From: Tubiluchus corallicola
Taxonomy: Eukaryota; Animalia; Priapulida
Length of the DNA: 64,000 nucleotides
Assembly (NCBI GenBank): GCA_030141605.1
Contig: JAQGDQ010000211.1
Location: 208,885 to 272,884, forward strand
Direction: 5' to 3'
Each line of letters starts with the position of its first letter. Position 1 is the stretch's first letter. Shown in pieces: positions 25,501 to 28,500 of the stretch. The notes below the pieces were generated by a model that worked only from the letters and a program-made list of their open reading frames with translations, was not told the DNA's origin and searched no databases. The translations under genes and the position numbers were made by a program.

Positions 25501-28500
25501 CTAAGTGAATTTAAATTTCGTATTACTAGTAAGTCACATGTCTTTAAGCAGAGGTATAATGTATCCTATGGTGGTCAGCATAACTACAAATTATGCTGTT
25601 GCTCTTTACTAATGAAACACGGCAGTTTATCAAAAGTAATTAATGAATTATGGTGGGAGTAATTTTTTACCCCCGGTTACCAAAATTGGTTGTAAAAAAT
25701 CGTGACTTTATAAGGGTTAATCTATTAATCGTCCTTCACTATTATTGAGACCCAGGTAGCCACTATCGAATGTTCATATAATCAGTGTTCTATTTCTTAA
25801 TATACACGATTTCTTTTTTCTAGGCCAGGTGTCCAGATTATGGTGCAACGGTAGTCAGTCGACTTACTTACTGGTGGGCAAATAAGTACGTGATATGAAA
25901 GTAGTTGAAAATTTCCTTGTCTGATTGCTATTTTAATGTCAAACAAGATTGTTGTTTTTTAAGAGCGGTTTACGTGAAAGGATTGTTAGCGCGGAAGTAG
26001 AGTTTATTATTACAATAATCAGTAGATGAACTTATATTTTAATTCGGACACAATCTTGAACTGTAGGTCAAAACAATCTACTCTTTAAAATATTGACAGG
26101 AACATTCTCATGAAAAGTTTTAGGTGTTACAAAATTGTGTTCTCTTATGACATCATCACTTACTGGGCTTTTTCCGCTGTTAATTTAGCTTTAACCTATT
26201 ATTTAATTATCAAGAAGACTTTGACACTATTATAGGCATTGAATGTGTACTTTTACAGTACTTAAAAACGGGGTCGGATTTGAAAAATCCTCCTGTTTTT
26301 GTTTAATGGGTCTGTTTTGACTGAATTTACTAGATTTCAATGACCGTATGTCCAGATGCGGAATTAATCTAAACTGAGACCGCACATATATATTTTTTAA
26401 TACAGTTCTAAATGTTAGTGCGTTGTGTAATGTAATATTGCATATATATATATATTTTAATGTAGTTTATACTGTATGTTAGTTTGAGTATATATTAGTA
26501 CAGAGGTGTCTAAAGGTCTTGGTATTGCCGGAGCTGGCCACTCGGGGATGAGCTCCCAGTGACCTACAAAGTGGCTCCAAGAGGCTTGTGCAACTCTACC
26601 ACCTCTGCCAGACAAACTCCTACGCTCTGCCTCCTCGTGGCGACACTGGTTTTACTAAATGAGCTAGGTGTGAAAGCGAGCTATTGGCGCTATAACCGAT
26701 AAAAATGCTTGCGGGATGCCTACACTGTATCTCGACACTAGGCGGAGGAGCTGCATAAGCAGCCAACGGCTAGAGGGCGAAGGAGGTCAAGCGACCCAAC
26801 GGCCATGTGTAGAGGAGTAAACCTTCCAAATCAGGAGTGGAGCCCCGAAGGCGGACCAGTGCAGCATGCTCACTGACTCCGGCAGCTCCTGCAGCCAACC
26901 TGGTGCCAAACGTATCGCTCTGCTTTCCTTTGGACTACACCAGGGAGGAAGAGAGGGGGTTCCTGATGTCTGGGCAACTCAGGATCTCCATATATCTTGC
27001 CCAGGCGTGCGCCCTGGAGAGGCCACTTCAGTGTCACTGCTTCAGTGACAGAAACAACACGGGAGGCAGCAGTTACGAGTTATAAGCCTAGAGCGAATTG
27101 GCGTGAGCTCGGGCGCTACGGGTTGCCTCCGACGGTGGGAGGGATCATCGCATCCCAAAGCAGGTAAACAAACCTGTCTCCTCGAGCATTTGCACGACCT
27201 CCTTTTACAATGCTGGGATGAAGGTACTGTGCCTCAGGACATGCGTGATGCCAACATCATTACCCTTTACAAAAATAAAGGCGATCGGAGCGATTGCAAC
27301 AACTATCGCGGAATATCCCTCCTCTCCACCGTGGGAAAGACCTTTGCCCGCGTGCTACTAAACAGACTCCACCGTCTCGCCGAACGGGTTTACCCAGAAG
27401 CACAATGCGGTTTCAGGGCAGAGAGATCCACCATCGACATGATATTCTCTCTAAGACAGCTCCAGGAAAAATGCCGCGAACAACGACGGCCCCTGTTTAT
27501 AGCATTCATTGACTTGACCAAAGCATTTGATTTGGTTAGCAGATCGGGCCTGTTTACACTCCTGCAGAGAATTGGATGCCCCCCAAAGCTGCTGAGACTG
27601 ATTACTTCCTTCCACGAGGAAATGAAAGGTACTGTTCAGTCCGACGGCTCTTCCTCACACCCATTCCCAATCAAAAGCGGAGTTAAACAAGGATGTGTCC
27701 TCGCCCCAACCCTCTTTGGTATCCTGTTCTCTCTGCTGCTGCGCTATGCATTTAAAGAAACTGAAGAGGGAGTCTATTTACACACACGAAGCGACGGCAG
27801 CCTGTTCAACCTCTCTCGTCTCCGAGCAAAGTCACGGGTTCGCAAAGTTCTCATTCGTGAAATGCTGTTTGCAGATGATGCCGCACTGACAGCTCACACT
27901 GAAGCCGGCCTCCAAGGCCTCATTGACAACTTTGCCCATGCCTGCAGTGAGTTTGGCCTCACAATCAGCATCCAAAAGACCAAGGTTTTAGGCCAAAATG
28001 TTTCCCCAGCCCCTCACATCTCCATCGATGACTGCTGCCTTGACGTGGTGGAAGATTTCACCTATCTTGGTTCTGTTATTTCCAGCAATCTTAGCTTGGC
28101 CACAGAACTGAACTCCAGAATCGGCAAGGCCTCATCAACGATGGCTCGCTTAACAAAGAGGGTGTGGGAAAACAACATGCTGACTATCAGGACAAAGTCC
28201 CAGGTGTACCAAGCCTGTGTACTGAGCACACTGTTGTACGGGAGCGAGAGTTGGACTCTGTATAGCCATCAAGAACGCAGGCTCAATGCTTTCCACCAAC
28301 GCTGCCTCAGAAGAATCCTGGGCATCTCATGGCAGGAGCACATAACCAACAAGGATGTGCTAGCAAAAGCTGGAATCCCTAGCATGTATGCCATACTCAC
28401 CAACAGACGTCTGCGCTGGCTAGGCCATGTTTCCCGCATGCAGGACGGCAGATTGCCCAAGGACATTCTGTACGGTGAGCTTGCTACTGGCTCCCGACCC

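Follow-up and report, generated by a model that had tools for sequence, protein, structure and literature searches.

The host gene and its intronic retrotransposon

The window, by which we mean the whole 64,000-nucleotide stretch of Tubiluchus corallicola DNA analysed here, contains an ABCC/MRP1-like gene, one intron of which (GT..AG, 25886–29529, + strand) holds a retrotransposon in the sense orientation. The exons flanking this intron splice in frame; the downstream one matches MRP1 (E 0.002), and ABCC2/ABCC3/MRP1 are matched by an exon further on (E 5e-18). The element occupies 26505–28876 (+) and encodes a reverse transcriptase (RT; Pfam RVT_1, E 3e-30). It is bounded by a target-site duplication (TSD) that is the longest exact direct repeat here, 13 bp at 26492–26504 and 28877–28889 (both +), so that the left copy ends at 26504, as an earlier note on this DNA had placed it. 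On its right side, at a distance of about 40 nt, the element is followed by a long AAT microsatellite (28930–29290). The stop-free frames at 35967–37491 (+), 49808–51586 (−) and 58898–59572 consist of tandem repeats, and their Pfam matches, in which no stretch passes, look spurious.

Behind its first 164 bases, which are described below, the element consists of the rest of the 5′ UTR (26669–27158, +), 77% identical over 271–337 nt to the UTRs of two related loci, L001 and L003; the 3′ half of a single ORF (27157–28821, +), with the RT and a C-terminal cysteine-histidine motif; and a 3′ UTR of 55 nt (28822–28876, +) that ends in a few CAA repeats and has similar counterparts at the 3′ ends of L001 and L003. 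The ORF aligns only to residues 496–1045 of a full-length relative, P0001 (83% identity), and contigs of other copies diverge from the window on both sides of 27157/27158. We conclude that an internal deletion at this point has removed the endonuclease half of the protein. The earlier description of an RTE LINE starting at 26505 is supported as to the RTE-like host element; the window copy, it should be added, is not a full LINE. The window copy looks like a single deleted copy rather than an amplified family.

Longer relatives number 1311, and the 120 best of these are 62–83% identical, mostly about 1045 residues long and encoded by a single ORF, with an APE endonuclease (PF03372/PF14529) followed by the RT (PF00078). 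Those among the 120 that are named belong to a lancelet, a snail and a sea star, and three clusters include coral members. The cluster of one relative includes a member annotated as 'craniofacial development protein 2-like', a name that we take to be linked to the RTE endonuclease. No relative of the element's protein was found in the viral contigs searched. The single ORF, the short 3′ UTR with CAA repeats and the long TSD fit the RTE clade, whose elements have been described as having a TSD and a short 3′ UTR with a microsatellite at its end (PMC6007223). The RTE-like label rests on these three features, the RT tree discussed below having been built without named RTE reference elements.

Architecture of the 5′ end

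The first 164 bases of the element (26505–26668, +) show the nested double-pseudoknot order of the HDV ribozyme, P1-P2-P3-P1′-P1.1-(P4)-J4/2-P2′, with P4 absent. The predicted cut lies after 26504, between the left TSD and G26505, which is at once the first base of the element and G1 of the ribozyme. P1 comprises 6 bp, its 5′ strand (26505–26510) pairing at six of six positions with its 3′ strand (26642–26647); the opening pair is a G·U (G26505·T26647), and a seventh position is a mismatch. P2 is formed by 26619–26628 and 26659–26668 and has nine pairs (duplex energy −10.0 kcal/mol) interrupted by two single bulges, C26623 on the 5′ strand and T26660, directly after the first pair, on the 3′ strand. 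P3 and its loop occupy 26629–26641, with three of three pairs formed around a 7-nt L3. The GG at 26648–26649 would form P1.1, its pairing with L3 being modelled on the HDV architecture. Where P4 would be there is a linker of 5 nt (26650–26654), and this is followed by J4/2 (CTAA, 26655–26658), a C-N-R-A sequence directly 5′ of the P2 3′ strand that supplies the candidate catalytic base, C26655. Every strand, pairing and coordinate that the earlier note had named was found in its place, and the HDV order that it proposed is supported by this strand check as well as by the descriptor and the Rfam alignment described below.

J1/2 (26511–26618, +) is 108 nt long and, as had been noted, contains predicted hairpin structure of its own. 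Folded alone in ViennaRNA (−32.1 kcal/mol), it is predicted to be closed by a 7-bp helix, P1.2, between 26516–26523 and 26607–26613, with two hairpin arms inside. Linkers of 5 nt flank the predicted P1.2 on each side, and the helix is also present in the minimum free energy structure of another ViennaRNA fold.

Descriptor searches, covariance models and folding

A descriptor that was built from general HDV rules, but composed after the finding was known, matches once when both strands of the 64-kb window are scanned; within 300 nt it names no P1 partner other than 26505. When the 654-nt 5′ segment is dinucleotide-shuffled 6000 times, a core with P2 appears in 11 shuffles and P1 as well in four; in the same 6000 there is no match of equal quality and none with P1 at the first 3 nt. 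Shuffling the whole window 25 times yields no descriptor match. Only two of the 4096 hexamers are able to serve as the P1 strand at 26505–26510, and the one at that position is the only hexamer of the kind in 26200–26620.

The outcome of the ribozyme search proposed in the earlier note depends on the tool: the descriptor finds the locus as its sole match in the window, whereas the Rfam covariance model does not reach its threshold. The alignment of the model drz-agam-1 covers 26607–26668 and has both bulges of P2, its score being 24.4 bits (E 0.14) against a gathering cutoff of 37. Since P4 and a short J1/2 are built into this model, the sub-threshold score argues against membership of that particular Rfam family and does not bear on membership of the HDV-like ribozyme class. 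At the gathering level, Rfam gives only two 5S matches in the whole window and no ribozyme model above threshold. Fifteen related loci, given whole and searched at E up to 1, gave no ribozyme either, which indicates that Rfam misses ribozymes of this build.

Thermodynamic folding with ViennaRNA, which cannot draw pseudoknots, leaves P1 unformed (z = +1.08 against shuffles); in such pseudoknot-free ensembles the P1 pair probability is 0 with 50 nt of flank. A rival helix pairs the P1 5′ strand with 26610–26614, at −4.8 kcal/mol compared with −6.4 kcal/mol for P1. As modelled, this rival helix and the unformed P1 would count against fast cleavage.

The first base of the family

Other copies were read through the contigs of four sequencing runs from at most two samples, X1, X3 and X4 being from one and X2 from another. 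In X1, X3 and X4 the element is joined exactly at 26505 by a contig whose flank is foreign, and X2 has two contigs, with different flanks, that both join at 26505. Together with the window this makes three separate insertions sharing one and the same initial G. An empty site is also seen in X3, where 26504 runs directly into the sequence found at 28890; the insertion in the window is therefore polymorphic. The proposal that G1 marks the 5′ end of the family is thus borne out by two other flanks and by the empty site. The one foreign flank that can be read clearly ends in T before G26505, and a target preference adjoining G1 at 26504/26505 is possible. Short contigs of high depth carry one to three unaligned bases before G26505 that differ from the window locus; we read these as shared flank bases.

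One candidate for a copy with a longer 5′ end, an 862-nt contig with 793 nt upstream, was rejected. Its depth, which is no copy number, is 2.7–2.8 times that of the window-locus flank in X1 and X3, and in X2 it is 18 compared with 21 for the other flank contig and is far below that of the core. We read it as one other locus, because its depth is near that of the other flank contig and far below that of the core.

Across 26505–26705 common variants are confined to two positions of J1/2, 26538 and 26543. The one diverged contig, from X3, has three changes in P2 (26624, 26627 and 26667), all uncompensated. The covariation in P1 and P2 that the earlier note hoped to see among other genomic copies is therefore lacking: the family is young, and its copies are too alike for covariation to be visible. 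We conclude that this RTE-like family has been active recently.

HDV-type cores in related loci

Eighty-three related loci were fetched and the 42 whose match reaches the N-terminus were scanned, 28 of them having at least 780 nt upstream. HDV-type cores lie 750–890 nt upstream of the ORF in nine of these 28; in the other 19 no core was found, and several of the core-less loci, judged by eye, are cut short or carry another motif. Two cores lack P4 (L001 and L069) and have a linker as short as the 5 nt in the window, five have P4 (L003, L026, L029, L067 and L071), and two have P4 together with an insert in L3 (L033 and L045). In these last two (L033 208–300, L045 178–270), L3 is 26–28 nt long and looks hairpin-like by eye.

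Several features of the window ribozyme recur in this set. C-N-R-A directly precedes P2 in all ten cores, the window included, with the top pair present in nine of them. By base at the catalytic place, the matching loci number 6 of 28 for C, and one, two and one for A, G and T respectively. In seven of the ten cores P2 consists of one pair, a one-base bulge in the 3′ strand and then the helix, so that the odd A(T)GAGC register caused by T26660 is a lineage trait and not a sign of decay. The second bulge, C26623, leaves the window P2 with a longest run of 5 pairs compared with 6–14 elsewhere, the weakest of the seven bulged cores. Both L001 and L069 retain P3, one of its pairs having changed from G-C to A-U in a compensatory way. 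P1 strands of different sequence are fully paired in L001, L067, L071 and L045 and doubtfully so in L029, a cross-family pairing to be read with the fact that matches had been selected for pairing; a clean P1 partner is absent from the other four of the nine cores (L003, L026, L033 and L069). A pair count on the three P4-less cores gives 60.6%, no better than shuffles; the P2 register is off in two rows, and a slide of +2 brings the count to 71%. The G+C content steps up at the predicted G1 in four of the five loci measured, and ViennaRNA predicts a single closing P1.2 helix in only two of five relatives. A TSD was sought in nine related loci and none was found, these loci looking like collapsed multi-copy contigs.

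The closest RT relative of the window in a tree of 21 rows is the P4-less L001 (support 94/92, not starred), and the P4-less L069 pairs with the P4-bearing L071 (100/99). The core in the head of L069 (378–500) is 68% identical to that of L001 (413–510) over 99 nt, and its body is 88% identical to that of L071. On these alignments, L069 may have arisen by exchange of the head or may be a chimeric contig.

Other 5′ motifs are seen in this collection. In five RTE-like loci without an HDV core (L005 85–150, L006 3–62, L013 50–120, L057 210–278 and L023 15–80), a second conserved motif with 17 invariant columns lies at approximately the place of the ribozyme. Its consensus fold is weak, and no Rfam ribozyme match was found in the four of these loci searched. 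It may be another self-cleaving RNA; twister variants are reported to head the RTE element Perere-3 (PMC8501958). A third motif was noticed by eye at the element starts of L046 (about 3410–3500) and L060 (about 1265–1345). Four loci, L080–L083, come from short contigs in three prokaryote assemblies; they are pieces of the same animal retrotransposon family and likely to be contamination, and they carried too little upstream DNA for the core scan.

SINEs without the ribozyme

Two SINE3-type elements with a 5S rRNA head are present in the window, at 43504–44054 (+) and 58128–58665 (+), the latter with a 12-bp TSD. Their bodies are 93–95% identical to 26707–27020 of the retrotransposon (from 26716 in the second) and 89% identical to its last 120 nt. 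The retrotransposon-derived part starts 39 nt behind the ribozyme, which both SINEs omit. Contigs of the SINEs have very high depth in all four runs, and the summed depth of the part shared with the SINEs exceeds that of the ribozyme about thousandfold in X1 and about hundredfold in X2 and X3, a ratio of depths and not of copy numbers. It has been proposed that a SINE headed by an RNA gene is unable to retain a self-cleaving 5′ end (PMC5786205), and the loss of the ribozyme from the SINEs in the window is a clean case of that proposal as published there.

Probable self-cleavage and its alternatives

Taken together, these data make it probable that the first 164 bases of the element are a working, P4-less self-cleaving ribozyme of the HDV type, as predicted from their fold. 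Copies would be transcribed from host promoters, as the window copy could be in sense inside the ABCC intron. The element's RNA would then fold at its 5′ end as the double pseudoknot, in which P1.2 would bring P1 and P2 close to each other from within J1/2, and C26655 would act as the general acid, with Mg2+, in a cut between the flanking base and G26505. Such a role corresponds to that of C75 in HDV-type cleavage, in which a metal also takes part (PMC13635239). Cutting of read-through transcripts in this way would make all new copies begin with one and the same base; the freed RNA would be translated, and target-primed reverse transcription would then copy it as far as G1. Having lost its endonuclease half, the window copy could move again only with the help of an intact sister copy.

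An alternative is that the fold is real but that an internal promoter at +1 is what mainly determines the 5′ end, with the ribozyme slow or serving as a back-up. A promoter of this kind would likewise yield a shared first base, a dual promoter/ribozyme system is known for Pr77/L1TcRz (PMC3383444), and the rival helices and the doubly bulged P2 could slow cleavage. We nevertheless consider it unlikely, because G1 sits exactly on a P1 G·U pair that so few hexamers allow, because RTE and baggins elements with such ribozymes are described as carrying no promoter (PMC6765202), and because the SINEs took a Pol III head instead of keeping this part of the element. That the ribozyme is a decayed remnant, ancestral but now inactive in the family, appears very unlikely. 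The sub-threshold Rfam score and the C26623 bulge, with its short continuous P2, could be taken as signs of decay; on the other hand, the core is near-identical among copies, the insertion is polymorphic, separate insertions start at G1, and the T26660 bulge belongs to the lineage. Finally, that an RTE 5′ UTR fits a descriptor made after the finding by accident is scarcely credible: the loose form does match four of the 6000 shuffles, but none at the quality of the window or at the element start, an independent Rfam model of the HDV family aligns here, and like cores at the same place in nine related loci largely refute it.

A wider reading goes beyond the working ribozyme that we favour, and we offer it only as a tentative possibility, rather doubtful as it stands: the ribozyme may be an exchangeable head module of RTE elements, possibly also cutting the host ABCC pre-mRNA in carriers. 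On this reading, the P4-less build with the bulged P2 would recur on distant RT lineages (L069 as against L001 and L071), sister lineages would carry a different conserved 5′ motif, perhaps another self-cleaving RNA, and the SINEs would have swapped the ribozyme for the 5S head. If it is true, carriers and empty-site animals form a natural pair of alleles in which to see the effect of an intronic ribozyme on a gene. A polymorphic ribozyme in sense within the intron raises the question of whether the output of the host ABCC gene falls.

Comparison with known HDV-like ribozymes

The suggestion that the 6-bp P1, the long J1/2 and the missing P4 make this an unusual variant does not hold, each of the three having been published for ribozymes of animal retrotransposons. 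P1 typically has 6 or 7 bp, and in some R2 elements P4 is too short to form; five silkmoth R2 ribozymes are reported to have no P4 and a J1/2 of 216–498 nt and to self-cleave, a C-to-U change abolishing cleavage in the one that was tested; and an HDV-like ribozyme of the abalone Haliotis discus has 5 nt instead of P4 (PMC3774820). The window ribozyme thus resembles those of silkmoth R2 in its lack of P4 and long J1/2, and that of the abalone in the 5 nt where P4 would be. R2 of the silkmoth, however, is a site-specific rDNA element whose ribozyme is described as cutting 28 nt upstream, in the 28S rRNA, whereas the window element belongs to an APE-type family, is inserted with a TSD and has a P1 that is wholly its own.

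Self-cleaving 5′ ends are already known for RTE elements (PMC3774820, PMC6765202, PMC5786205). With the RTE ribozymes described there and with drz-agam-1, the window ribozyme shares the double-pseudoknot order, the cut predicted at the first base of the element, an intronic element and a sub-threshold Rfam match; it differs in having no P4 and in the bulge after the first pair of P2. In its J1/2 the window ribozyme resembles drz-Agam-2-1, which has a long J1/2, a predicted P1.2 and short linkers, a P1 of 6 or 7 bp being usual, and in which a P1.2 'pinch' speeds the reaction; its P2, as described, is a continuous helix of 12 bp, compared with nine pairs and two bulges, and no P4, in the window (PMC4908430). 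The minimal HDV-like and theta ribozymes also lack P4, but have a short J1/2, are found in phages in about 99% of cases, many of them adjoining tRNAs (PMC10879173), and so differ from the window ribozyme with its 108-nt J1/2 in an animal retrotransposon. A search of the literature by titles and the beginnings of abstracts gave no P4-less RTE ribozyme; Ruminski 2011 and Riccitelli 2014 may describe P4-less or P2-bulged ones.

Among the RTE derivatives covered by the same source, bipartite elements resemble the window copy in combining an internal deletion with both ends kept, although the window copy, unlike them, keeps the whole RT half; RTE-bodied SINEs with an RNA-gene head have, like those in the window, taken the inner part of the 5′ UTR and left out the ribozyme (PMC5786205). 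Six short motifs of the element are absent from one supplement of that paper.

These findings leave what is known of the HDV-like class unchanged. What they add is a natural, predicted HDV-like ribozyme without P4, carried by an animal RTE-like family of recent activity whose 5′ end is established by an empty site together with separate insertions. The P4-less build, described in R2, abalone and phages, is thereby extended to RTE-like elements, at least three in number. A P2 with a one-base bulge would escape strict searches. Both the LINE with the ribozyme and the SINEs without it are held in a single window.
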